Shown: positions 11,560-51,473, counted from the stretch's first letter. The stretch: 64,000 bases of DNA from Armatimonadota bacterium (GCA_016869025.1 VGFA01000001.1:140309-204308); one strand, 5' to 3'. Numbers and translations are program-made. The notes: generated by a model not told the origin, from the sequence alone.

Positions 11560-12864
11560 ATGGCCGAGAGACGCATCAACGTGGACTACCTGGCCCGCGT
11601 CGAGGGTGAGGGCGCGCTGCGGGTCGTGATCAAGGACGATCGCGTTACCGACGTCCAGCTCAACATATTCGAGCCGCCACGCTTCTTCGAGGCGTTTCTG
11701 CGAGGCCGCACGCCCCAGGAGACCGTGGACATCACGGCCCGAATCTGCGGCATCTGCCCGGTGGCCTACCAGATGAGCGCCGCCCACGCGTTGGAGAAGG
11801 CCCTGGGCGTGACCCCTCCGCCCGGCGTACGCGCCCTGCGCCGGCTGCTCTACTGCGGCGAGTACATCGAGAGCCACGTGTTGCACATCTTCATGCTGCA
11901 TGCGCCGGATTTCATCGGACACGAGTCGGCCATCAGCATGGCCACCGATCCGGCCCTGCGTCCGCTGGTCGAGCAGGCGCTGCGAATGAAGAAGATCGGC
12001 AACCACCTGGTGACGGTCATCGGTGGGCGCGAGATCCACCCGGTCTCGGCATGCGTGGGCGGCTTCTACCGGGCGCCGCGCAAGTCGGAACTCGTGGCCC
12101 TGGTTCCGGATCTCGAGTGGGGCCTCGAGAGGGCGGTGGAGGCCGTGCGGTGGGCGGCCACGCTGGACTATCCTGACTTCACCGCCGACTACGAGTTCGT
12201 CTCCCTGTCACATCCTGATGAGTACCCCTACAACGAGGGGCGCGTGGTGTCGTCCAGAGGGCTGGACATCCCGATAGAAGAGTACGAGCGGCACTTCCTA
12301 GAGGAGCACGTCGAGCACTCCAACGCGCTTCACTCGCGCCGCGCGGGCAGCAAGACGAGCTACATGGTGGGGCCGCTGGCGCGGGTGAACCTGAACTTCG
12401 ACCGGCTCTCGCCCAGGGCCCAGTCGGCGGCGCGTGACATCGCGCTGACCCTGCCCGTGCGCAACCCGTTCATGAGCCTGCTCGCGCGCGGGCTGGAGCT
12501 GGTTCATGCCTATGAGGAGGCGCTCCAGTTGATCGCCTCCTACGTGGAACCCGTTCCCTCAAGGTCGCCCATCCCCACGCCTCCGAGGGCCGGGGAGGGA
12601 GCCCATGCCACCGAGGCACCGCGCGGTCTGCTGTACCACCGGTACACGGTAGACGCAGCGGGCCTGATCGCCGGTGCCAGGATCGTACCGCCGACCGCGC
12701 AGAACCTGAGGCGCATGGAGGACGACCTGTGGCAGTACGTGCCCGGGGTGCTGGCTCTACCGCTCGAGGAGGCCACGCTGCGCTGCGAGCAGCTCGTGCG
12801 CAGTTACGATCCGTGCATCTCGTGCGCCACGCACTTCTTGAAGCTCGACCTTGAGCGGGAATAG
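11560..12864 (+). CDS. [NiFe] hydrogenase large (alpha) subunit
   Basis: It has the N-terminal [10 protein letters not shown] motif (first CxxC Ni ligands). The C-terminal [10 protein letters not shown] is followed by a short tail, which is the protease cleavage site. 434 aa is the size of a group-3 enzyme. Confidence 0.9.
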
Positions 12865-13360
12865 GGAGAGAACTGCCGGGGCCAAGGCCCCATCCGCGCT
12901 GATCATAGGCATTGGTAACGCGTCGCGGGGCGACGATGCGGCAGGGCTGATCGCCGCCCGCCTGATCAGGGATGCGCTTCTTTCCCTCCCGGATCCCCCG
13001 GATCCGGGGCGCGTTGCGGTGCTCGAACAGGATGGCGAGGGCACCGCCCTTGTCGCGGCCTGGAAGGGCGCGGAGACCGTGATCCTGATAGATGCCGCCC
13101 TCTCCGGCGCGGCTCCCGGCAGCATACACCGCTTCGATGCCCTCGGCCAGCCGCTCCCGGCCGGGTTCCGCGCTTGCTCGACTCACGCGTTCGGAGTGGC
13201 AGAGGCGATCGAGCTGGCCAGGGCGCTGGACCGGCTGCCGCAGCGGCTCATCGTCTACGGAATCGAGGGCCTGTCGTTCTCGGCAGGCGAGGTGCCCTCG
13301 GAGGCGGTCGAGGCCGCGGTACGGGCGGTGGTCGAGCGCGTGCTGGCCGACGTAAGGTAG
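12851..13360 (+). CDS. Hydrogenase maturation endopeptidase (HycI/HoxW family)
   Basis: It has the [16 protein letters not shown] motif and the D...H core. It overlaps the large-subunit stop. Confidence 0.8.
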
Positions 13361-38933: not shown

Positions 38934-38943
38934 GCCCCTGCCA

Positions 38944-38953
38944 TGGTATAATA
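38944..38953 (+). promoter_or_regulatory. Extended -10 promoter element (TGGTATAAT) for ssrA
   Basis: It lies about 34 nt upstream of the mature tmRNA 5' end. Confidence 0.55.
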
Positions 38954-38985
38954 AGCGTGCTTGGTCGTAGCCGCAGCCAGAATGT

Positions 38986-39335
38986 GGGGGCGATCGGTTT
39001 CGACTGGGTGGGAAGCAGCAGAGCTGCGAGCCGAGGTGGTCAGGTCCTCGTTAATCAACTGGCAGGCGCACAAACGCCAACACACAGTACGCACTCGCCG
39101 CTTAAATAGCGTCGACGCTCACCTGGTAGGGCCGGCGGCCCGGGCTGAGCGCCACAAGCCGGCTACCGTCGGGCGTCCTGGCCCGGGACGCGCGATGGGA
39201 ATCCCAACGGGCTGGCAGCTGGAGCATCCGGTCTGCGGGAGGCTCCGGCAGCGAGATCCAAAGCGCAGACTACGCTCGTAGACGCTCCGCCCTCATCCAC
39301 TCAGGACGCGGGTTCGATTCCCGCCGCCTCCACCA
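38986..39335 (+). ncRNA. ssrA: tmRNA (transfer-messenger RNA, SsrA)
   Basis: The 5' GGGGGCG pairs with the 3' CGCCUCC-A-CCA, including the G3·U70 alanine identity pair. The 3' T-arm is GGGUUCGAUUCCC. An internal tag reading frame at 39076-39105 encodes ANTQYALAA*. smpB lies 3 kb upstream. Confidence 0.95.
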
Positions 39336-39348
39336 ATCGTCCTTTAGC

Positions 39349-39680: not shown

Positions 39681-39718
39681 GCGTATCAAGTGGCGTATCA
39701 GGTGATACGCCGATACGC
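39681..39718. promoter_or_regulatory. Nested direct/inverted repeat operator-like site
   Basis: gcgtatca-agtg-gcgtatca-gg-tgatacgc-c-gatacgc. The core GGCGTATCA-GG-TGATACGCC is a perfect 9-bp inverted repeat with a 2-bp spacer. Confidence 0.45.
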
Positions 39719-39792
39719 TTCCCAGAGAGCCGTCGGCGTATACTTCGCCCCCAACTGGCCAGGCACCGCGACGGTAGCTACCCTTCATGAGA

Positions 39793-40089
39793 TTACGCGA
39801 CGAGCCGCGCCCATATGATGAGAAGCCAGTGAGCGAACCCCAGGATCGCAAGCACGAGACCGGCAAACCCAAGCCTAGACGTTGTCCAGTCCTTCACTCT
39901 AGCCGCGCCGATGATTGCGGCGATCCCCGCAAGGGCGCCGAAGAGCGCTCCGAAGAGCCACACGGATCCCATCAGATCGCATCCTAGAGCGTACGGGTCG
40001 GTACGGACACAGCGCACGGAGGCTACCAGACCAGTAGCGTCAGACGCCACTGAGACGAAACCGACCAGTCTCCACATCTCGGCACTCAT
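39793..40089 (-). CDS. Small membrane protein, island paralogue A
   Basis: 98 aa with two or three TM helices. A C-x3-DP-x4-C motif is shared with the next gene. It is preceded by the conserved leader element. Confidence 0.5.
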   Translation of the reverse strand: MSAEMWRLVGFVSVASDATGLVASVRCVRTDPYALGCDLMGSVWLFGALFGALAGIAAIIGAARVKDWTTSRLGFAGLVLAILGFAHWLLIIWARLVA

Positions 40090-40128
40090 GCGCGCTTGCC
40101 TCCTCGGGTGTGGTCACAAGACGCCCCA
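40090..40128 (-). promoter_or_regulatory. Conserved leader element, short copy A (RBS-proximal part)
   Basis: On the minus strand the leader reads ggggcgtcttgtgaccacacccgaggaggcaagcgcgc-ATG, matching copies B and C. Confidence 0.55.
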
Positions 40129-40179
40129 ACACCTAGCGTTGCTGCAGACCTGCGCACAAGAACAGGCCGGCACTCGCAA

Positions 40180-40398
40180 TCAGGCCCAAAGCGACACTGC
40201 CCTGGCGCGGGTCCGGCCTTTTCGCCCATGCCGGATGGCCAACGACCCCAGCACTACGGCGAGGAGGTTTGTGATCGTTGGAGGCAGCAGATGCAATGGG
40301 ACGGCAAAGGCGCAGATCGGGTCGTAGGAGCGGCAGTCTCCTGTCACCGCCGCATAGGCTGCACCCATCAAGCCGAACCCGAGCGCCCACGCCTTCAT
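40180..40398 (-). CDS. Small membrane protein, island paralogue B
   Basis: 72 aa with GDCRSYDPICAF followed by a TM helix. It is preceded by the long leader copy B. Confidence 0.5.
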   Translation of the reverse strand: MKAWALGFGLMGAAYAAVTGDCRSYDPICAFAVPLHLLPPTITNLLAVVLGSLAIRHGRKGRTRARAVSLWA

Positions 40399-40486
40399 AG
40401 CACTCGCCTCTTCGGTTATCAGACAATAAGACGCCCCGGCCCCTCGGGAACGGCGAGGCGTCTGGTATGGGGGCCGGGCTACCGGC
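40399..40486 (-). promoter_or_regulatory. Conserved structured leader element, long copy B
   Basis: It is about 80% identical over 88 nt to 41616-41706. It contains the pairing AGACGCC/GGCGTCT and CCGGCCCC/GGGGCCGG (pseudoknot-capable). It ends in GAAGAGGCGAGTGCT-ATG. Confidence 0.6.
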
Positions 40487-40787
40487 TATCTACGGCGACC
40501 GTTCGTCAGAAGGGGCTGCCGCCTCCTCCAATCGTGTCTGTCCCTCCCGGCATGGTTGACGCCCCTCGGCGCCCGGCCGACAGGTTGTCGAGCGTGCTCG
40601 CTCTTCGGAACTTGACGAACACCTCCGCCTTTGTGAGGTGCGCGTGTTGGCTGACCATGGCGAGGCTCCCAAGGACAGTACCACAGCACAGAAGCGCCGC
40701 CCGACAAGGCAAGCCTACGCGGCGTGGCAGCCCTTGCCGGACAGCCCTGCCACACGCCGCAGCAGCTTCGGCGCTGAGAGCACGCAT

Positions 40788-41615
40788 CTAGCGTTTCGGG
40801 GCGAAGCGCAGAAGTAGAACACGGCCAGCCTGATCCGGCGCGTTCGTCACCTGCCACGCGTCAGAAAACACACGCACCTCGCCACCTCTCAACGTCTGTT
40901 CGCGATGCCCAGAGAGTCCGACACGCACACTTCCAGAGATCCCAATGATGACCATGGGCTGGTCACTGGAGATGAATGTCCCCACATCCCAGTTTGGTGG
41001 GTAGCGACCGATGGAAATGCGGTAAAGCCAGACCGTGTGGGCTCCACTACTCAGTCCCACTGCTGCAACTGCAAAGGTCCGATATTCCGACGGGAGCGCG
41101 GAAGCAACGTCAGCACCCAACGTAATGAGGCAAAGTCTGGTCCTCAATGTCGAATGCCAGTCATGCGTGTGCTCGGCCCCGTCCGGTATCCACGCGGCCT
41201 CGCCGCTGACATGGTCGCTCGTTCGCCCCGCTATCGTCAGCAGATTGAGCCCCTCCACCGTGTACTCCCAACCCATCGCGTGGCTGTGGGTTCGGACGGA
41301 GGCGCCCGGCTCAACCACGAGTTCACTGACCTTGATGTTTGTGGGGGCGGCCGGCAGAATCGCCTCTTGCTGACCCAGGAGTTTGGTTTCAGGGCCGACG
41401 ATGATGAGTTGAGCCAAAGCATCGCTCGGGGCCAGTGCACCAGGGACGTTCTGTGCCCCGGTCATTTGTACGTAGCCGTCAGTGGTCACGCCCAGCGTCC
41501 ATTCTTCAATGCGCTGGCCCGGCACGATGAGGTTGTCGTCAGGAGCCTGCGCAAAGCCGGGCACCGACAGGGCGAGGGCAACGAACAGAAGCAGGACATA
41601 CGCAGTGGTCTTCAT
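40788..41615 (-). CDS. Secreted bicupin-domain protein
   Basis: It starts with the MKTTAYVLLLFVALALSVPGFA signal peptide. It has two cupin-like beta-barrel halves. It is preceded by leader copy C. Confidence 0.55.
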   Translation of the reverse strand: MKTTAYVLLLFVALALSVPGFAQAPDDNLIVPGQRIEEWTLGVTTDGYVQMTGAQNVPGALAPSDALAQLIIVGPETKLLGQQEAILPAAPTNIKVSELVVEPGASVRTHSHAMGWEYTVEGLNLLTIAGRTSDHVSGEAAWIPDGAEHTHDWHSTLRTRLCLITLGADVASALPSEYRTFAVAAVGLSSGAHTVWLYRISIGRYPPNWDVGTFISSDQPMVIIGISGSVRVGLSGHREQTLRGGEVRVFSDAWQVTNAPDQAGRVLLLRFAPKR

Positions 41616-41706
41616 CGCGCTCGCCTCCTCGGTTTCGGTCATTAGACAGCAAGACGCCCCGGCCCGCTGCGTGGGGCGAATCGCTCGGTACGGGGCCGGT
41701 ACCGGC
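41616..41706 (-). promoter_or_regulatory. Conserved structured leader element, long copy C
   Basis: See copy B. It contains the perfect palindrome GCCGGTACCGGC and ends in GAGGAGGCGAGCGCG-ATG. Confidence 0.6.
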
Positions 41707-41721
41707 GTGGCCGCATCGCAA

Positions 41722-42816
41722 TCATGGTTGCTTCAGAGTCAGCACCCAGATCTGCCACGGATCCTTCGCAAAGGCAATCCTCGCCCCATCTGGCGAAAAC
41801 GCTGCTCCACGGCCGGCGGTCAAGGATCGTGTCTGCGGCTCCGGCACGACGCCAGCGATGGCATCCGCGCTCGTCATGATCCAAAGAACGTCGCCGCGGC
41901 CGTAAACAATGAACTTGCCGTCGGGGGACACCACAGGTGCCATGTGGCCTTGGCCGGTGGCCACCGTGCGCAGTTCACGCGTGCGCGGATCCAACACCTG
42001 CAGATCGTTGGTAGATGACGAATCGATCACCTCCCGAGCATTGGCGACAAGAATGAACTTGCCGCTATCTCCGACGAAGCGTGGGGACTCAACGTTGCCG
42101 GGTCCCTCCCAGACCGACGACGCACCGGACCCATCCGCGTTCATGACATAGACACGACTGTTGCCGCTGGCACCGGCCCCGGAAAATACGATCTTCGTCC
42201 CGTCGGGGGACCACGACGGATCCCTCGCGCGACCCAGGTTCGTCAGTGCCCTGGCACCGCTTCCGTCCGGGTTGATCGTCCAGATCTCTTGGGTCCACCT
42301 CGGGGTGGGTCCCGTGACCAAGACGTCGAGCCCGACCGAACGATTGAAGATGATTCGACGACCGTCCGGAGACCACGACGGGTTGTCATTGTGTTCCCCG
42401 GCGGCCTGCCTGGTGAGGCGCCTGGGAGATTGTCCCTGGATACCCACGACCCAGATGTCCGAGGGGTGGAACTTGAGCCCCGGACGGTCAGGGAGCCTGC
42501 TAACTTCACCAATGCGACTGAACGTGATGGTCTGGCCGTCCGGAGACCAGCTCACCGATCCGTACCTGGATCCCGGCGATCCACTGCCCACATCGCGCTG
42601 GAGAACGAGAGTCGCGTCCCCTGGTTCTGGCAAGGGGCTCTGACCAGCGAGCGGATGCGCCAACAGGGTGACGGCGATGACCGCTGCAAGAAGCAAATTG
42701 ATCGCAAACAGGCGCCATCCCCCGGAGCGACAGCCACGTTCCTTCAGCGGGTTCCCTGGCAGCTTCCCTCCAAGACCTAAGCAGCCACCGTTACTGGCCA
42801 TCTCCGTACCTCCCAA
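41722..42816 (-). CDS. Membrane-anchored TolB-like (PD40/WD40-like) beta-propeller protein
   Basis: It has an N-terminal TM segment and repeated SWSPDG / SPDG blades (SWSPDGQTITF, SWSPDGRRIIF, SWSPDGTKIVF, SPDGKFIVY, SPDGARIAF). Confidence 0.7.
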   Translation of the reverse strand: MGGTEMASNGGCLGLGGKLPGNPLKERGCRSGGWRLFAINLLLAAVIAVTLLAHPLAGQSPLPEPGDATLVLQRDVGSGSPGSRYGSVSWSPDGQTITFSRIGEVSRLPDRPGLKFHPSDIWVVGIQGQSPRRLTRQAAGEHNDNPSWSPDGRRIIFNRSVGLDVLVTGPTPRWTQEIWTINPDGSGARALTNLGRARDPSWSPDGTKIVFSGAGASGNSRVYVMNADGSGASSVWEGPGNVESPRFVGDSGKFILVANAREVIDSSSTNDLQVLDPRTRELRTVATGQGHMAPVVSPDGKFIVYGRGDVLWIMTSADAIAGVVPEPQTRSLTAGRGAAFSPDGARIAFAKDPWQIWVLTLKQP

Positions 42817-42885: not shown

Positions 42886-43326
42886 CTATCGACAGTTGGG
42901 ACGTTCACAGCGCCACCAGATCGGGATGAGGACCGTGTCATCGAGCACCTTCTGCTCTACGTCCCTGAAGAGACGAATGCCGTCGTAGACGTCTCCGACC
43001 GATCGTGGCCGGTCGATCAGCGCTCGAGCCCGACCGATGAGGGCGTCCACGTCGGGATTCGCGTAACCGAAGATGTTCAGTGAGCCTTTCGAGTGGGCGA
43101 GAAGTTCAAGCAGGCTGCGCACCCCCACGACGAGGATGTTCAGCCCTGTGTCCTCCGTACAGGCGTTGGTGAACAAGGCCACGTAGAAGAGGTGGATCGC
43201 GGAGGAGCGCACGACGCTGGCGTCACCACCGGTCCGCACCGTAACGCGAAAGCCGAGCTCGCGAAGCTCACTCACGAAATCGTCCGCACCGGCGAGACCT
43301 TCGTTCACCCACAAGCTCACCGGCAC
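42886..43326 (-). pseudogene. Remnant (C-terminal about 30%) of a family-5 ABC substrate-binding protein
   Basis: The 146-aa ORF matches only the C-terminal region of Opp/Nik-type binding proteins (NIFGYANPDVDALIGRA...VLIPIWW). There is no signal peptide or N-terminal lobe. Confidence 0.5.
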
Positions 43327-44773: not shown

Positions 44774-47700
44774 ATGCGGTGTCCTTCCTGCGGTCATGAG
44801 CGGACGTCGCCGCACCTGCGGTGCAGCAACTGCTCTGCAACCTTCCCGCGCGAACTCCTCGAACGATACGATCGTCTGACCTTCCTGCTCGGCGTGGTCT
44901 CGGATTGGGAGCGCGCCGGGCGGATCTCCGAGTCGGCCCGTGCTGAAATCGCGGAACCCTGTCTGAGGGAACTGGAACGGGTCGAGCAAGAGCTCGGCGT
45001 GCGCGCCGCGCCGCCGGTTCCTGAGGCGCTTGTGGTGCCCGTCCCGGTTGCGCCTGTCCCGCCGGCGCCGACCGTCGCCCATGGGCTGATCCCCGCGGCA
45101 CCCGCATCGTCCGTCCCGCCGGAGGGGGCTCTCCCGGAAGGCGGCCCTCCGGAGGTGGCTCCGTCCCCCCCGCGTCCCCTGATCCCTCGGATCTCCTGGG
45201 AGGATGTCTGGCGAGGGCTTCTCTCTGAACGGTCGCTCGAGGTGCTCCTGTTCGCCGGCGCGGTGCTGATCATCGCCGCGGCGGGAACGTTCGTGTACTT
45301 CAACTGGGGACGGTTCCCCCCGGCGCTGCAACTGCTCTCCCTGATCGTAGGCACGGCGTCGTTCTTCGTCGGCGGCTGGCTGCTCCGCACGCGCTGGAGG
45401 TTGACGCAGTCCGCGCCGGCGCTGGTGGGCATCGGAGCTTTCATCGTTCCGGTGGACTTCTACGCGTGGGCCCGCTTCCGCGATGTCCCACCGTCCGCCT
45501 ACGCGGCCCTGTGGTGCACGGCGTCAATCTGCTGCGGGGTTGTCTATGCGGCAACCACCTGGTGGCTGCGCCACTGGTTCTTCTGCGTGCTGCTCCTGCT
45601 GGCCGCCCACAGCCTGGCGCTCGCGGTGCTCTTCCTGCTGGGCGTCCCACCGGCATGGTGGGGAGCGGTCGCGGCGGCGCTCGCCACGGTGTGGATGGTT
45701 CTGAGGCCCCGGTTCTCCCTGGCCGGGCCGGGGTCCGAGCAGGCGGCCACAGGCGTCTCGATCGTCGCGGCGGTGCTGGGCGTGGCGGTACCGGCGCTTC
45801 TCCAGGCCGAGAAGTGGGGCACCCTGTTTGACGGCACAAGCCCCGCGGGCGCCTGGATCCTGCCGGTGGCGGCGGCGGTGTGGATGGGCGCGGTGTTTCT
45901 GTTTGCATTCCACCGGCGTCTGCCCTCCGGCGACGCCGCGACGCTGGCGGCGCTGACACCGGCGGTCGCCGTGGTGATGACCCTCCTGCCGATGATGACG
46001 CGGCCGTGGGTGAGCCTCGGCATCCTGATTCTCGCCGCGGTGTATGTCGCCCTCGAGGACCGCGTCCTGGGGTCGCTGGCCCCGGCCATGCGCGGGACGG
46101 CCATCGGAGCGTCGCTGGTCGCCGTCGCCTGGTCTTTGATGGATCGTGTCACCGCCGCGGTCGTCGTACTCGCGGCGTCGGCGCTCTACGCCTGGTGGGC
46201 GTTCGAGTTTCGGCGGCCGGTGGTGCTCATCGCCGCGCAGATCGCCGCGCTCGTGGGACTGCTGTACGCGCTGGCCGTCGCCCGCGTCGCCGTGGGGTAC
46301 TGGCCTCTCGCCGGTCTCGCGGTCGCCGCGGTCAGTCTCGCGGGCACCGTCGCGGCGCGCGCGGCGCCCGGTTTCGCCAGAGTCCTGTATGTCGGTGCGT
46401 ACGTCTTCCCGGTACTCGGCATCGTCGCCACCGTCGATGTGAAGGCACCTGCGCTGGTGCTCACCACCTTGCTCGGCGGTGCGCTCGCCATCGCGGTCTA
46501 CTCAGCAGTTCTGGTGCACCGGGGCAGCGATCCGGCGCTGAGCGCGCTCGCGGCGCGGCTGCCGGCGGGCGGCGGCCTGCTCTTCCAGTGGGTGGCCGCC
46601 GCTTTGGCCGCCGCTGAGGTGGCGGTCGCGTGGCTGTGGTGGCGTCCGGTGCCCCATGGCTTGGCCGCCGCATGGCTGACGCTCGGCACGGGATTCGTCC
46701 TGATCGGCCGGCGCTTGAGGCACATCGACCCGCGCTATCTCCGTCCGTGGGCGGCTTCGGCTCTGGTGCTCAGCACGCTGGCGACGGTGCTCGCCCTGGT
46801 CGTGGAAGTTCGCGCACCGCTCATCTACACGCTGCTGCTGGCGACGGTGACTTCGGCACTGTGGGCCTGGCTGCTTCGGTCTCCATGGCTCGCGTATGTC
46901 GCCGCCGGGCTCCTACTCGTGCCGTTTGGGCTTGCGCTGCCCGATGCCGTGGCACATGGTCTCATCCCGTCCAGGGCGGCCTACACCTGGCTCATCGCCT
47001 CACTGGGCGCGGTCTATCTGCTTGCCGGTGTGATCCTGGATCGCTCTGAACCCCGATTCGGAGCACCCGTGCACCTCGTCAGCCACCTCTTGATCCCGTT
47101 CTCGCTCGTGTGGGTGCTGCAGGAGCCGCCGCTCGGCCTGCAGACGCTGGCCATCGCCGTCGCGTTCTATGTCGCGTCCGCACGGCTGGTGCACGAGGGC
47201 CGGCACCCGACGGTGATGAGCCTGATTGACCGTCTCACGCAGACGGCCCCGGGTGCCGCGCCACCGCTGCGGGCCATATTCGTCTATGTGTCGGCCTGGC
47301 TGTTCCCGTTCTGGTTTGAACTCGCCGCGTCACGCGTCCCTGCGGTTCGCGAAACGCGGGCGTTTCTTGGCGTCACTGCCGCAGCGCTGGCGTGGGCCTA
47401 TCTAATGGTCGGACAGTGGATACGGCGGGCGAATCCCGCGTACGTGCCACCGTTCAGGATCGCCGCGCAGGCGCTGGTCATCGCCGGCGGTCTGCTGGCC
47501 GTCGAGCACCGCCCGCTGCTCCTTGGGGCGGTCGCGCTCGGCGCAGGGCTGCAGGTGGCGCTGTACGCCCTGTCGGGCCAGACGGTGTGGGTGTACACCG
47601 CGGCCCTGGGAGGCGCGGGCTGGCTGGGGTTGGCGCTCAACCACCTGCATTTCCACTCGGCTCCCGCGGGATGGGTGATGATCCTGCTCGGGATTGGGTA

Positions 47701-49405
47701 CGTCGGTCTTGCCGAGGTCAACTGGCGCCGGACCGCGACGCGCGACGTCCCACCGGTATCGGCCGCCCTCCTGGCGGTGGCGTTCCTGGTCGTGGTGATC
47801 GGCATCCTGCTCACCGCCCTGCGGGTACCCGAGAATGCCTGGGCCGCGTACGCGGTCAGCGCGCTGCTCTTCCTCTGGTGCGGGTGGCGGCTGCGTGAGC
47901 CGCTGCTGGGATACCCGGCGGCGGGTCTGGCCGCGGCGACCTACGTCGCCGTCCAGACCACCCTGCTGAAGGGCACAGGTGCGTCCACTGCGCACCATGG
48001 CGTGGCGCTGTTACCCGGGGTGGCGGTGTTCTTCGCCGTTGCGTGGGCGCTCGATCGACGCGCCGCTGCCGCAGGGCCGCCCTCCCAGAAGGGCGCGTGG
48101 AGTACCCCGATGGACGCGGCGGCGCAGATCGGCATGCTCGTGGCAGTCGTCTTTGCCTCAACGCACCGCTGGCTGTTCCCTGCATCGCTGGGGCTCGCCG
48201 CTGTGCTCTACGGACTATCGGCCGTGCGATTCCGCCGGCCTGTGCTGGTGTACGCGGCACTGCTGGCCGCCCTCGCCTCGGCGTTGTTCGCGTTGCTGCA
48301 GGCACCCATTGCGCCTCGATACATCCCCGTCGCCTTCGTACCGGTCGCCTGGGCGCTGGCCTTCATTGGCTGGCGCACGGAGGCGGTGCACAGCCGTCAG
48401 GCCCTGTTCACAATGACGTGGGCCCAGCCGTGGCATGTGGCGGCCCTCGCCACTGTGGCGCTGTGGGAACTCGTGGGGATGATCGAGGCCCGCGCCCAAC
48501 TGCTCACGTCGTTGGGCTTCGCGGCGCTCCTGTGTGCGTACGCGTTCCGGTGGCGGGAGTGGAGCGCCGCGACTGCGGCGCAGGTGCTTGTGGTGCTGGG
48601 CATCGGCGGCGGTCTCCGCTGGCTGCAGGTGACGTATCCCGCCTGGCTCGCGGCCGCATCGCTCACTGCGCTGGCCTTCGGCGTCCTGTCGGTGATCCTG
48701 GGTGTCCTGCGCAGGGGAGCCTTGTGGCAGACGGGCGCGCGCGGGCTGGCCCACGTGCTGGCCGCCGGCGCGCTCGTGTGGGCATTCTTGGGCGTCGTCG
48801 CGGCGGTGCACGCGAAGGCCGGAGAAGGTCTGGTCTACACGCTGGCCATCGTGGGCCTGCTCTACCTGCTGCTCGCCATCAAGGACCGGCAGGAGTGGCT
48901 CGGCTACCTCGCCGTCGCCATGCTGGAACTCGCCTGGGGTCTCTTCTTGCTGCGCAGACTTCAGGTGACCGAGATCCAGGCGTACGCGATTCCCTCATCG
49001 CTATATCTCCTCGGCATAGGGGTGGTGGAGCGACGGATGCGCCGGCCGACGCTCGCGCGGTTCATCGAGGTCGCGGGCCTCATTCTGCTGCTGGGCTCTG
49101 CGTTCTGGCAGTCCGTGACCGGCGGAGGGTTCTGGTACGCGGTTCTGCTGGCGGTCGAGGCGGTCGCGGTGGCCTGGGCCGGCGCGGCGTGGCGCCTGCG
49201 TCACTACTTCTTCAGCGGCATCGGGATGCTGCTGGTGAACGTCGTCGCCCAGGTCATCGATCCCCTGCGTGCGCTCGACAAGACGATCTTGTTCCTATCG
49301 CTTGGCGTGCTGCTGGTGCTCATCGCGGTGGCCGCGGAACGCAAGCGGGAGGCGATCATTCGGACCACGCGCGAGTGGCGCTCGCGGCTGGAGGCATGGG
49401 AGTGA
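44774..49405 (+). CDS. Giant polytopic membrane protein with N-terminal zinc-ribbon and Pro-rich linker
   Basis: 1543 aa. The N-terminus is CPSCGH-x12-CSNC, followed by a P/A/V-rich linker, then about 40 predicted TM helices with internal repeat units (Y..W.FRRPV motifs recur). The C-terminus overlaps the next gene by 10 nt. Confidence 0.7.
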   Translation: MRCPSCGHERTSPHLRCSNCSATFPRELLERYDRLTFLLGVVSDWERAGRISESARAEIAEPCLRELERVEQELGVRAAPPVPEALVVPVPVAPVPPAPTVAHGLIPAAPASSVPPEGALPEGGPPEVAPSPPRPLIPRISWEDVWRGLLSERSLEVLLFAGAVLIIAAAGTFVYFNWGRFPPALQLLSLIVGTASFFVGGWLLRTRWRLTQSAPALVGIGAFIVPVDFYAWARFRDVPPSAYAALWCTASICCGVVYAATTWWLRHWFFCVLLLLAAHSLALAVLFLLGVPPAWWGAVAAALATVWMVLRPRFSLAGPGSEQAATGVSIVAAVLGVAVPALLQAEKWGTLFDGTSPAGAWILPVAAAVWMGAVFLFAFHRRLPSGDAATLAALTPAVAVVMTLLPMMTRPWVSLGILILAAVYVALEDRVLGSLAPAMRGTAIGASLVAVAWSLMDRVTAAVVVLAASALYAWWAFEFRRPVVLIAAQIAALVGLLYALAVARVAVGYWPLAGLAVAAVSLAGTVAARAAPGFARVLYVGAYVFPVLGIVATVDVKAPALVLTTLLGGALAIAVYSAVLVHRGSDPALSALAARLPAGGGLLFQWVAAALAAAEVAVAWLWWRPVPHGLAAAWLTLGTGFVLIGRRLRHIDPRYLRPWAASALVLSTLATVLALVVEVRAPLIYTLLLATVTSALWAWLLRSPWLAYVAAGLLLVPFGLALPDAVAHGLIPSRAAYTWLIASLGAVYLLAGVILDRSEPRFGAPVHLVSHLLIPFSLVWVLQEPPLGLQTLAIAVAFYVASARLVHEGRHPTVMSLIDRLTQTAPGAAPPLRAIFVYVSAWLFPFWFELAASRVPAVRETRAFLGVTAAALAWAYLMVGQWIRRANPAYVPPFRIAAQALVIAGGLLAVEHRPLLLGAVALGAGLQVALYALSGQTVWVYTAALGGAGWLGLALNHLHFHSAPAGWVMILLGIGYVGLAEVNWRRTATRDVPPVSAALLAVAFLVVVIGILLTALRVPENAWAAYAVSALLFLWCGWRLREPLLGYPAAGLAAATYVAVQTTLLKGTGASTAHHGVALLPGVAVFFAVAWALDRRAAAAGPPSQKGAWSTPMDAAAQIGMLVAVVFASTHRWLFPASLGLAAVLYGLSAVRFRRPVLVYAALLAALASALFALLQAPIAPRYIPVAFVPVAWALAFIGWRTEAVHSRQALFTMTWAQPWHVAALATVALWELVGMIEARAQLLTSLGFAALLCAYAFRWREWSAATAAQVLVVLGIGGGLRWLQVTYPAWLAAASLTALAFGVLSVILGVLRRGALWQTGARGLAHVLAAGALVWAFLGVVAAVHAKAGEGLVYTLAIVGLLYLLLAIKDRQEWLGYLAVAMLELAWGLFLLRRLQVTEIQAYAIPSSLYLLGIGVVERRMRRPTLARFIEVAGLILLLGSAFWQSVTGGGFWYAVLLAVEAVAVAWAGAAWRLRHYFFSGIGMLLVNVVAQVIDPLRALDKTILFLSLGVLLVLIAVAAERKREAIIRTTREWRSRLEAWE

Positions 49406-49977
49406 CCGAGGGCGTGATCCGGGTCGAAGTCCCCGCCGGTTTCTGGCCCCGGCTGCTCGCGTTCTGCCTCGATGCCATCGCTGCGGGTCTCCTCGAATCC
49501 CAACTGGCCGATGCGTTGCCTCCCGGACTGGTCACGGTGGCGTACTTCTGGCTGCTGACCGGCATCCTGGGGCGAACGCCCGGCAAGATCGTCCTTGGCA
49601 TCGAACTGGTCGGGCCAGAGGGCAAGGTGGGTCTTGGCCGCGCGTTCCTGCGCGAGGTCATCGGAAAGCTGATCGGCGCGGTGGCGTTCGGGCTCGGTCT
49701 GCTGTGGATCGCGTTCGATCCGCAGAAGCGCGGGTGGCACGACGTGATCGCCGACACCAGGGCGGTGCGCGTGAGCACGACGCTGTGGGCGGCCGCCTGG
49801 GAGAGCGAGATCGCCGGCCTGCTCGCCGATCGCGGCGAGGCCCGCGCCGAGTGGCTGGTCAGGGTCTTGCCCGAGAGTCGCGAAGCGGCGCTCCGAGGGT
49901 TCGCCGTCAAGCACGCGCGGGGCGTGACGCTGTCGGAGGGAGTGCTCACGCCGACGGGTGAGGTCGAATGGTTCTGA
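49396..49977 (+). CDS. RDD-family membrane protein
   Basis: Conserved Arg and Asp residues are present (FWPRLLAFCLDAI ... GWHDVIADTRAV). It has three TM segments plus an approximately 70-aa soluble tail. It has 10-nt overlaps at both ends (ATGGGAGTGA and ATGGTTCTGA). Confidence 0.7.
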   Translation: MGVTEGVIRVEVPAGFWPRLLAFCLDAIAAGLLESQLADALPPGLVTVAYFWLLTGILGRTPGKIVLGIELVGPEGKVGLGRAFLREVIGKLIGAVAFGLGLLWIAFDPQKRGWHDVIADTRAVRVSTTLWAAAWESEIAGLLADRGEARAEWLVRVLPESREAALRGFAVKHARGVTLSEGVLTPTGEVEWF

Positions 49978-51473
49978 CGCGCGCGGGCATCCGCTGGTGT
50001 CTCGCCGTTCTGGCTCTGCTTTCCCTGGCCTTGGTGCTGGGGGTCGAGCTGGGACTGCGGGACGGGCGAGAATCCGGCGCGGGGTGGATCCGTCATCCCT
50101 GGGCGGACCTGCGCGGTCCCGCGCAGCTGGTCGCGGCGTTGAGCGTTGGTGCGCTGTTGCTGTCGGTCCTCCTTGCGGGACGGCAGCGTCCTCCAAGCAC
50201 GGCCCTGGTTCCCGTGGAGACTGTTGTCGAGCACCGGACCTTCTCGGCGCCGGTCAAGGCACTGCTGCTGGGCATCAGCGCGGTGATGGCGGTGGTCGGT
50301 GGCCTGGCGTTCGCGGGAATCGACGTGCTTCTCGCACTCACACACTCCGAGTTGGCGTTTGCGCTGGCCGTCGGCTGTCTGGTCGGCGGGATCATCACGG
50401 TCGTGCAGGTGCGTCACTCGCTCGCCGGGAGACCGGCACGGCGATTCCGTCTGCCGTCCGTGTTGATGCTGGGCCTCGGGTTCGTCCTCGTGGTCGCAGC
50501 CGGCACGGTCACCCTGTACCTGCGCCAGCGCGTGGGGTTCAGTTTCGCGCCGCTGCTGTTCCTCGGCGCGGCGCTGCCGCCGCTGGCCGCGCTGAGCGTC
50601 GCGGCGGAAGGTGTTGGCCAGCCGGCATCGGCGCGCCGTGTGCTAGTCGCCATGGTGGCCGGAGGCACCGCATCGGTGATCGCCGCGGTCATGTTGGAGA
50701 TGCTCCTGCCCGGGATTATCGCCCTCTTCGTGAAACCCGTGGCCGACATGATACGGGAGGTCATCGCGCTCATCGACCAGGGGAGGTTCAGCGACCTCTT
50801 CAGGTCGCCGGCCGCCATCTTCGCGTTGGTCCAGCTCGCCGTCGTCGCACCCATCGCGGAAGAGGCGGTGAAGCCGATCGGCGTGATGGTCCTGGGGCGC
50901 CGCATCCAGTGCGCCCGCGACGCGCTACTGATCGGCATGGGGTGTGGGGCAGGGTTCGCCATCGTCGAAAACATCATGTACGAGGGCGGAGGGATCTCCA
51001 TCTGGGCGGGCATCACATTTGTTCGCGCGATCGGCGGGGCGCTGCACCCCATTGGCGCGGGACTCGTCTCGCTCGGGTGGTTTGGGGTCTTTCAGCGCCA
51101 ACCCGGGAGGTGGCGCAATCTTGCCCGCAACTACTTGGCGGCTGTCGGTCTTCACGCGATCTGGAACGGCGCCTGCGGGATCTTCTATCTCCTGGAGTCG
51201 GCGCATAGAGACGTCCTCGGACCGGTCGACCTGCAGGGGTGGGTCATTGACATCGGCCTGCTCGCCCTCTTCCTGGTTGAGGGCGCGTTCATGTTCTGGG
51301 CGGTGCGGCGCATCGCGCAGGCGCTCGCAGCCGATGCGGTCCCTCAGCCGGCCCTCCCGCCGGCCCGCCTGTTAGGTCTCTGGGCCGTCGCCTGCATGGG
51401 CGTGCTGCTGCCCATCGCCGCAGCCGCCAGCCGCGCGGTCGTGCGCTACCTGGAGTCCGGCCCGTCACCGTAG
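49968..51473 (+). CDS. PrsW-family intramembrane glutamic protease with extra N-terminal membrane domain
   Basis: It has the motifs EE..K (PIAEEAVKP), F...E (GFAIVEN) and H...N (GLHAIWNG). At 501 aa it is much longer than B. subtilis PrsW. Confidence 0.7.
   Translation: MVLTRAGIRWCLAVLALLSLALVLGVELGLRDGRESGAGWIRHPWADLRGPAQLVAALSVGALLLSVLLAGRQRPPSTALVPVETVVEHRTFSAPVKALLLGISAVMAVVGGLAFAGIDVLLALTHSELAFALAVGCLVGGIITVVQVRHSLAGRPARRFRLPSVLMLGLGFVLVVAAGTVTLYLRQRVGFSFAPLLFLGAALPPLAALSVAAEGVGQPASARRVLVAMVAGGTASVIAAVMLEMLLPGIIALFVKPVADMIREVIALIDQGRFSDLFRSPAAIFALVQLAVVAPIAEEAVKPIGVMVLGRRIQCARDALLIGMGCGAGFAIVENIMYEGGGISIWAGITFVRAIGGALHPIGAGLVSLGWFGVFQRQPGRWRNLARNYLAAVGLHAIWNGACGIFYLLESAHRDVLGPVDLQGWVIDIGLLALFLVEGAFMFWAVRRIAQALAADAVPQPALPPARLLGLWAVACMGVLLPIAAAASRAVVRYLESGPSP

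Follow-up and report, generated by a model that had tools for sequence, protein, structure and literature searches.

In the genome of a lake bacterium of the phylum Armatimonadota, a small island of genes abuts the gene for transfer-messenger RNA (tmRNA), and three of the intervals between its genes are copies of one another. These three spacers, named A, B and C, are the subject here. All lie on the minus strand, and each is the stop-to-start interval between neighbouring genes, the order on that strand being PD40 gene, spacer A, cupin gene, 129 nt of non-coding sequence, a 50-codon open reading frame (ORF), spacer B, the gene for a 72-amino-acid (aa) protein, spacer C and the gene for a 98-aa protein. 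The stretch of 64,000 nucleotides that was analysed is referred to as the window, and the window plus fetched flanks was the space searched for further copies.

41616 to 41721, minus strand: copy A, 106 nt, between the PD40 beta-propeller gene, whose stop is TGA 41722-41724, and the cupin gene, whose ATG is at 41615
40399 to 40505, minus strand: copy B, 107 nt, between the 50-codon ORF, whose stop is TGA 40506-40508, and the 72-aa membrane protein gene, whose ATG is at 40398
40090 to 40179, minus strand: copy C, 90 nt, between the 72-aa gene, whose stop is TGA 40180-40182, and the 98-aa membrane protein gene, whose ATG is at 40089

When whole spacers were aligned locally and the scores compared with those of 1000 dinucleotide shuffles, z was 14.7 for A-B and 8.8 for A-C, with 0 of 1000 shuffles as high in either case, and 3.7 for B-C, a score reached by 7 of 1000. 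By the same comparison three other spacers of the island have no similarity to A, B or C, or to one another. A and B have 72 identities over 97 alignment columns (74%, or 90% with gap columns left out), and without gaps they match best over 32 nt (87.5%) and 25 nt (88%); A-C identity is 89%. This homology is not restricted to the 3′ part of the spacers and extends all the way between the preceding ORF's stop and the start codon. A and C have a common start, TGATTGCGA, the TGA in which is the stop codon of the preceding gene, and there are deletions of 8 nt in C, after the box described below, and of 6 nt in B, before the ribosome-binding sequence. As the homology extends over the whole stop-to-start interval, the unit comprises an entire intercistronic spacer, of which C, with its internal deletions, is a full though more diverged copy. 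A model that had read this DNA with nothing but the sequence to go on (the original prediction) had placed homologous non-coding modules directly 5′ of consecutive minus-strand genes, and alignments and positions agree with it. Its coordinates for two long copies (40399-40486 and 41616-41706) were right, while its third, ‘short’ copy is actually full-length C, which at 90 nt has internal deletions and the same beginning as A.

Profile hidden Markov models of the core and of the full spacer found no further copy in the window and flanks, the next best match having an E-value of 17. The local repeat is real: the spacers are homologous, the genes that flank them are unrelated, and within the sequence searched they are confined to the island, a statement that is provisional as it covers 64 kb of a multi-megabase genome. 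The original prediction had named as a refuting case a scattered repeat of the repetitive extragenic palindromic (REP) or miniature inverted-repeat transposable element (MITE) type; over the 64 kb searched, no such scatter outside the island is seen.

Two short blocks recur inside the spacers. One, the box GGGGCGTCTT, is invariant; it occurs exactly three times in the window, always on the minus strand, where shuffles lead one to expect 0.25 occurrences, and it is 28-35 nt upstream of the ATG in each copy. The other, CCGARGAGGCRAGYGC, comes 18-25 nt after the box in all copies and is followed after 1-2 nt by the ATG. It is a 16-nt block holding the Shine-Dalgarno (SD) site and is found only at these three places in the 64 kb.

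41651 to 41660, minus strand: box GGGGCGTCTT in copy A
40428 to 40437, minus strand: box GGGGCGTCTT in copy B
40118 to 40127, minus strand: box GGGGCGTCTT in copy C
41617 to 41632, minus strand: SD block CCGAGGAGGCGAGCGC of copy A, 1 nt before the ATG
40400 to 40415, minus strand: SD block CCGAAGAGGCGAGTGC of copy B, 1 nt before the ATG
40092 to 40107, minus strand: SD block CCGAGGAGGCAAGCGC of copy C, 2 nt before the ATG

In each copy GGAGG or AGAGG is 8-9 nt before the ATG, which is canonical SD spacing. The SD resembles the GGAGG sites of other genes in the window; what is unique to these three genes is the 16-nt block. Each copy supplies the same translation-initiation region to the gene downstream of it. 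The common ending had been written as GA(G/A)GAGGC(G/A)AG(C/T)GC-ATG, and this is correct, with 1-2 nt intervening before the ATG, at all three starts.

Could the box be read at the level of DNA? It would then be an operator, or an element of an alternative-sigma promoter with GTCT again 8 nt later in A and B, and each gene would have its own co-regulated promoter, e.g., one of the extracytoplasmic function (ECF) type with CGTC in its -10. CGTC is common in ECF -10 elements, no 10-mer other than the box is invariant across the three copies, the box is nowhere else in the 64 kb, and genes for exported and membrane products are the kind that are under envelope-stress regulons. Nevertheless, a conserved -35-like element (e.g., GGAAC) at 16-17 nt is missing from every copy, C is unrelated to A and B upstream of the box, the distance from box to SD varies by 8 nt through indels, and neither a sigma-70-type promoter in the island nor a regulator or sigma gene among the genes called within 10 kb was found. 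Besides, at the 89% identity of A and C a match of 10 in 10 needs no selection. DNA-level control is, on balance, quite unlikely. Promoters of the ECF or sigma-70 type were also tried as candidates in their own right and rejected: there is no conserved -35, the hexamers TCTAAT and TCTGAT have no A at position 2, and the scan found none.

How far afield can the spacers be traced? Orthologous leaders were looked for by way of homologues of the proteins, but all of the contigs carrying the genes (17/17, from JGI 3300020109, JGI 3300020198 and Logan runs) represent one population, and their spacers are 100% identical. The pattern GGGGCGTCTTN{5,30}CCGARGAGGCRAG yielded 3 matches in metagenome contigs and 5 in genome contigs, the latter from five unrelated phyla; none is similar beyond the pattern, and those inspected are chance sites inside, or at the start of, unrelated genes. 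Two looser patterns gave 20 and 14 single matches in viral contigs, again with no similarity past the pattern, and those inspected are ordinary ribosome-binding sites of unrelated genes. Scans with exact patterns miss diverged relatives, and the source genome is itself absent from the metagenome and genome collections scanned.

The genes that the spacers separate are a heterogeneous lot.

41722 to 42801, minus strand: PD40/TolB-like beta-propeller protein of 359 aa with an N-terminal hydrophobic segment, upstream of copy A
40788 to 41615, minus strand: exported protein of 275 aa with one weak Cupin_2 match, downstream of copy A
40506 to 40658, minus strand: 50-codon ORF, called by JGI, whose stop begins copy B and whose 3′ end holds a repeat of the tmRNA end
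40180 to 40398, minus strand: hydrophobic protein of 72 aa, no family match
39793 to 40089, minus strand: membrane protein of 98 aa, no homologues

Whether the 50-codon ORF is a real gene is uncertain. All gene products are exported or membrane proteins, and the PD40, cupin, 50-codon ORF, 72-aa and 98-aa proteins are mutually unrelated (every pairwise BLASTP E-value is above 0.5). The PD40 protein (NCBI MBM3469348.1, FJX73_00930) has best relatives that are 40-44% identical; for the 275-aa cupin-like protein and the 98-aa protein there are no real homologues among 5.8 billion proteins. The former had been described as a bicupin, a description that its single weak Cupin_2 match, at an E-value of 2e-4 and below the Pfam cut-off, does not verify. 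The 98-aa gene appears at NCBI as a 59-aa version (MBM3469346.1, FJX73_00920) starting at an internal Met, and the conserved SD block supports the longer start as the probable one. Since the locus tags 00920 and 00930 leave room for just one gene between them, NCBI has probably left out either the 72-aa ORF or the cupin.

Some observations on the surroundings may be recorded at this point. Downstream of the cupin stop, at 40690-40787 on the minus strand, there is a GC-rich stem of ~14 bp; it ends just before a short pyrimidine-rich CGCUUCU, and a 101-nt stretch folds there at -50.7 kcal/mol, which with a z of -0.69 is not significant. It may be the 3′ end structure of the cupin gene. At the outer edge of the low-GC block, a 146-codon ORF (42886-43326, minus strand) with a GTG start has neither a family match nor a recognisable SD module, and may be a gene fragment at the island border. 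Adjoining the island, at 44774-51473 on the plus strand, is an unusual trio: a 1543-aa polytopic membrane protein without a Pfam domain, an RDD-family protein and a 501-aa PrsW-family protease.

The original prediction went well beyond a shared leader. It saw in each long copy the helices AGACGCC/GGCGTCT and CCGGCCCC/GGGGCCGG arranged as a pseudoknot, and hence an RNA that would be riboswitch-like or bind a protein. Several copies before neighbouring genes are what such a leader with an H-type pseudoknot might look like, and in copy B both helices can indeed be drawn. However, AGACGCC and GGGGCCGG are present in B only. Copy A has, of the proposed helices, just the 7-bp CCGGCCC/GGGCCGG, and copy C has neither helix. 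Placed on the A/B alignment, the pseudoknot has 6 of its 15 pairs broken in A and 0 pairs with a compensatory change. Even in B the two 3′ arms abut with a zero-length linker, and a 6-nt loop must span ~15 stacked base pairs, so that the geometry is judged likely to be sterically strained.

Is there any other sign of structure? The z-scores of minimum-energy folds against shuffles are +0.56, -0.92 and -0.71 for whole spacers, -0.8 and -1.6 for 67-nt cores, -1.1, -2.2 and -0.3 for hairpins, and -0.26, +0.75 and -0.67 for the cores from box to AUG in the three copies. Over this range (+0.75 to -2.2) the folding energies of spacers, cores and hairpins are indistinguishable from those of shuffles. 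In two copies the box can be the 3′ arm of a hairpin:

41648 to 41685, minus strand: hairpin of copy A, 3′ arm the box, AGCGA..CGCCCC pairing with GGGGCG..TTGCT, -20.5 kcal/mol, z -1.1
40430 to 40462, minus strand: hairpin of copy B, 3′ arm the box, GACGCCTCG pairing with CGGGGCGTC, -20.5 kcal/mol, z -2.2

These two pair in different registers. RNAalifold gave different weak structures for different subsets of copies and, per alignment, one two-sided change, which falls in a short 5′ helix (A-B) or in a terminal pair broken in one copy (the three cores); such covariation tests rest on three sequences and have low power. At its gathering threshold Rfam 15 recognises only the tmRNA in the whole window, and a scan of 39700-42000 at E<=10 returned three irrelevant sub-threshold matches and nothing else. 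An intrinsic-terminator search flagged only B (40449-40434, with the tail CGTCTTATTG), and the counts of such candidates in the island and in the rest of the window are not above those in shuffles. Set against terminator criteria (a GC-rich stem, a loop of 3-8 nt and then a U-tract), the A and B hairpins have loops of 12-15 nt and U-poor tails.

A regulatory RNA role for the spacers, conceivable as it is, finds no support. The reading as a riboswitch-like or protein-binding pseudoknot leader is largely refuted and is now very improbable: to the helices missing in part from A and wholly from C, the lack of compensatory pairs, the strained linker in B, the ordinary folds and the silence of Rfam are to be added that the element is in no other genome or metagenome scanned and that the downstream genes, homologue-less and unrelated, are not a shared pathway. 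What speaks for it beyond the drawing in B is that the box hairpins of A and B are slightly better than shuffles. With no covariation found, what is left is in essence what the original prediction itself had named for that case, a duplicated upstream region. There is a warning in this, as helices and pseudoknots can always be drawn on GC-rich repeats.

A subtler role for base pairing is masking of the SD. The box (GCGUCUU), or the segment just after the stop, would pair with the SD, which would be freed when the preceding gene is translated or when, in A and B, the competing upstream hairpin forms, so coupling one gene to the next. Such a device would follow the RNA-unfolding model of coupling, or else act in a thermometer-like way; RNA-unfolding coupling over a spacing of +52 nt is documented for rpmI-rplT (PMC12548453). 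In its favour, each element starts exactly at a stop codon, and the first ~16 nt after that stop pair with the SD-to-AUG region in all three minimum-energy folds. On the three cores RNAalifold pairs GC.UCUU with A(G/A)GA.GC of the SD, where the sole difference, G to A, still pairs with U. Given A and B, the program joins (U/C)UCGCC to GGCGAG, a helix in which three changes are compatible, all of them one-sided. But no helix beats shuffles. The core folds are the ordinary ones given above, the closing helix has p-values of 0.17, 0.28 and 0.12, and the pairing of upstream sequence to the SD 0.41, 0.20 and 0.27. Pairing registers differ between tools and between copies, the SD helices are without two-sided compensatory changes and, by our own estimate, about one complementarity of 6 in 7 is expected by chance in a GC-rich leader. 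Masking or coupling of this sort is unlikely.

Two features mark the setting of the island.

38986 to 39335, plus strand: tmRNA gene, tag ANTQYALAA, at whose 3′ end the island starts
40518 to 40535, plus strand: direct repeat of the tmRNA 3′ end (GCCGCCTCCTCCAATCGT), 17 of 18 bases

Between 39 and 43 kb GC is 0.62-0.64, compared with 0.66-0.72 around, and from the tmRNA 3′ end to ~43.3 kb overall GC goes down from ~0.70 to 0.63, the GC content of third codon positions falls and gene orientation flips. The source of the repeat is 39323-39340 on the plus strand, 18 nt that close the tmRNA gene and include some of its flank (GCCGCCTCCACCAATCGT); the repeat is 1.2 kb downstream with one mismatch, and its score of 31 is above that of all 200 shuffles. 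It is a probable attachment (att) remnant bounding an inner islet of ~1.2 kb without an integrase. The inner islet holds B, C and the two small membrane protein genes, copy A being outside it, and copy B is 13-32 nt from the repeat. One assembly from the same population, L002 (Logan SRR7979709_104171), is identical to the window up to position 39310, inside the tmRNA 3′ end, and then continues into different DNA (its positions 12307-13219), which has small hydrophobic ORFs of 82 and 134 codons before the contig ends after 913 nt. As the switch occurs at the tmRNA 3′ end, that end is a recurrent insertion point in the population, and L002 points to some of its members having another islet, or an additional one, at this tmRNA site. 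The gene set looks to have been acquired horizontally. On this point the original prediction holds up, and the drop in GC, to 63% against 68-72% in the surroundings, the tmRNA as neighbour, the copy of its 3′ end and the scarcity or absence of protein relatives all agree with it. Among the genes called within 10 kb on either side there is no match to integrase or recombinase Pfam families, no phage, plasmid or defence signature was found for the island, its DNA has no match in plasmid and phage collections, and PHROGs and NCBIfam gave nothing informative.

Three further sequences around the tmRNA gene deserve mention. Within L002, just inside the fragment of the tmRNA end, there is a 21-nt direct repeat, GTCCCGCCCCGTTCCGCCCTG, at 12317-12337 and 12379-12399, placed like the arm-type sites of integrases, no integrase being visible on the short contig. 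A fourth copy of the spacer in that variant islet (GGGTCGTCTT..CACACCCG) was considered and rejected as not significant (p 0.12); in the islet as examined, p-values were 0.12-0.88 and no copy was significant. On the plus strand at 38940-38955 an extended -10 promoter (TGgTATAAT) precedes the tmRNA gene, so the organism uses canonical sigma-70 signals, which makes their absence from the island more noticeable. Two relationships between spacers and tmRNA end were also entertained, that a degenerate remnant of that end is next to copy A and that the SD block, with which it has GGAGGCG in common, was derived from it; neither is among the significant matches.

With an insertion point so near, are the spacers themselves sites of recombination, whether cassette junctions of an integron-like or tmRNA-att kind or a REP/MITE family? 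Integron attC sites are imperfectly palindromic elements of 57-141 nt that separate promoterless small genes in one orientation in acquired DNA. The layout here is cassette-like too, with conserved, imperfectly palindromic spacers separating variable small genes of one orientation in acquired DNA, the tmRNA 3′ end is clearly a recurrent insertion point, and B is close to the repeat of it. Yet the attC core sites, R′′ (RYYYAAC) and R′ (GTTRRRY), are absent from both strands of all three spacers, B having been examined as the whole 389-nt interval from cupin to 72-aa gene, and attC was rejected. Unlike attC, moreover, the spacer carries the ribosome-binding site (RBS) of the next gene, and there is no integron integrase nearby, the genes called within 10 kb including no integrase of any sort. 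Neither A nor C has significant similarity to the tmRNA end beside it. The ends of the unit (TGATTGCGA... and ...GGCGAGCGCG-ATG) are not inverted repeats of one another and have no flanking or target duplication, and copies are lacking elsewhere in the 64 kb and, at significance, in the variant islet. That the spacers are recombination sites or mobile repeats is a very remote prospect. As for tmRNA-linked genomic islands in general, the resemblance is that the island abuts the ssrA 3′ end, has lower GC and has an inner segment ending in a direct repeat of the ssrA 3′ end, and that other members of the population carry different DNA from the same point. The difference is that no integrase or mobility gene was found in its ~4 kb and that the islets are very small.

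Closer parallels to the spacers exist. Putative mobile promoters (PMPs) are homologous non-coding stretches of 50-100 nt directly upstream of non-homologous genes in one genome; one family is conserved from about -5 to about -120 relative to the start codon, 68% of families have two members, and the pipeline that identified them required 80% identity over 50 nt (PMC3488235; Matus-Garcia, Nijveen & van Passel, Nucleic Acids Res 2012). The three copies here, of 90-107 nt, ending 1-2 nt before an ATG and having unrelated genes on both sides, are alike in kind. They are unlike PMPs in that A-B identity, at 74% over all columns (90% without gaps), is just under the PMP threshold, in that there is no recognisable promoter in them, in that the copies are adjacent in one island rather than chromosome-wide, and in that the unit starts at a stop codon, which makes it a spacer between cistrons rather than an evident promoter region.

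The start-associated sequences (SAS) and their extended forms (ESAS) of Cluster K mycobacteriophages are asymmetric, with an SD core and conserved flanks that have no rRNA-pairing role (PMC3203893; Pope et al., PLoS One 2011). The SAS is a 13-bp motif, GGGATAGGAGCCC, with 93 sites identified, many per phage genome and conserved across subclusters; it is a few nt upstream of mostly ATG starts, in one orientation, before genes of different families, and about half of the sites are extended upstream by a stretch containing inverted repeats that, to judge by their mismatches, do not point to an RNA hairpin (PMC3203893). Similarly, the 16-nt CCGARGAGGCRAGYGC with its SD is 1-2 nt before ATGs on the same strand of unrelated genes, and the long upstream parts of the spacers carry inverted repeats that do not covary. 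In contrast to the SAS there are just three copies, of different sequence, with no phage genes or similarity to phage DNA and with no relatives found.

Mycobacterial interspersed repetitive units (MIRUs) are short repeats between co-oriented genes, touching stop and start codons (PMC12548453). Copy A is reminiscent of them, as its internal ORF overlaps the upstream stop (ATGA) and ends, at TAATG, on an in-frame ATG. The frame in B, however, has no ATG, GTG or TTG start, and the ORF in C is in another frame, out of phase with the ATG; besides, the spacers carry their own strong SD and are neither tandem nor dispersed. Small ORFs within the spacers as MIRU-like couplers were rejected as inconsistent between copies. 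The ORF of copy A (41644-41726, minus strand) has 27 codons from the ATG overlapping the PD40 stop to the end TAATGA, and shared with that TAATG is an in-frame ATG (41642), which precedes the SD-served cupin start by nine codons; by reading of the sequences, this chain is not kept in B or C.

What, then, are the spacers? A, B and C are a new, very small family of an already known kind of repeat. We favour, with a confidence that is about evenly poised, the view that they are diverged copies of one intercistronic spacer which was propagated between unrelated genes in a small array of acquired islets beside the tmRNA gene. Since the spacers are conserved and the flanking genes unrelated, either the spacer moved on its own or it was kept while genes were replaced. 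The module would mainly be a portable cassette of ribosome-binding and intercistronic sequence, which would let foreign genes without homologues be translated. Its GC-rich upstream half would form hairpins that are not conserved in detail, with GGGGCGTCTT as 3′ arm in A and B, and between cistrons these may be mRNA-stabilising or weakly attenuating stems. We infer that it is neither a ligand-sensing riboswitch nor a conserved pseudoknot. Of the original interpretation, homologous leaders and an acquired gene set stand and the riboswitch or pseudoknot RNA falls.

Several points weigh against crediting the cassette with a function. Nothing seen in the copies suggests that it does more than carry the SD, and the box hairpins surpass shuffles in complementarity by a narrow margin in A (p 0.03) and B (p 0.04); C has none (p 0.66). 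By our own estimates the conserved blocks are no longer than neutral decay would allow at 74-89% identity, ~0.2 runs of 15 identical bases being expected for A-B. That the genes form one operon is a candidate arrangement only, and with no sigma-70-like promoter found anywhere in the island the source of its transcription is unexplained.

Should the spacers be regarded simply as neutral scars, the residue of recent local duplication or recombination during island assembly, in which only an ordinary SD is functional? The levels of identity and lengths of blocks fit neutral decay (our own estimate), there is no structural signal, no relatives were found in the collections scanned, and the SD block turns up, by chance and as a plain RBS, in phage contigs that are unrelated. 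However, the spacers are kept at 74-90% while the genes they separate share no detectable similarity, and position and orientation are kept in all three, exactly from stop to start. An in-phase pair of stops is kept in A and B, TAATGA in one and TGATAA in the other, a feature that was seen after the fact. Scars alone are rather unlikely as the explanation. The stops in question, at 41639-41644 in A and 40414-40419 in B on the minus strand, are consecutive and retained through two substitutions; they may be coincidence, or one frame through the box may be translated.

A more ambitious reading, to which we give little credence, is that the spacers are a lineage-specific device for translational control and coupling, borne by islets stacked up beside the tmRNA gene. 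Here the SD would be hidden by the invariant GCGUCUU box and exposed again when, in A and B, an anti-box hairpin forms upstream, or when a ribosome finishes translating the gene before. Expression of newly acquired, homologue-less genes would in this way be linked and conditional, and the junctions would double as points of gene swapping. If true, such a combination of cis-regulatory RNA and cassette-like island would be one not described before. The finding would gain greater weight only if the box truly controls translation, or if genes are exchanged precisely at the junctions. As it stands it contributes a single case to what is published on the propagation of promoters and RBSs, leaving that literature unchanged. 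If the plain reading is true, the island would be a small, clean natural case of how acquired genes without homologues get expression signals, in which a ready-made spacer with a strong ribosome-binding site has been reused among unrelated genes of islets gathering at a tmRNA gene, in a poorly studied phylum, the Armatimonadota.

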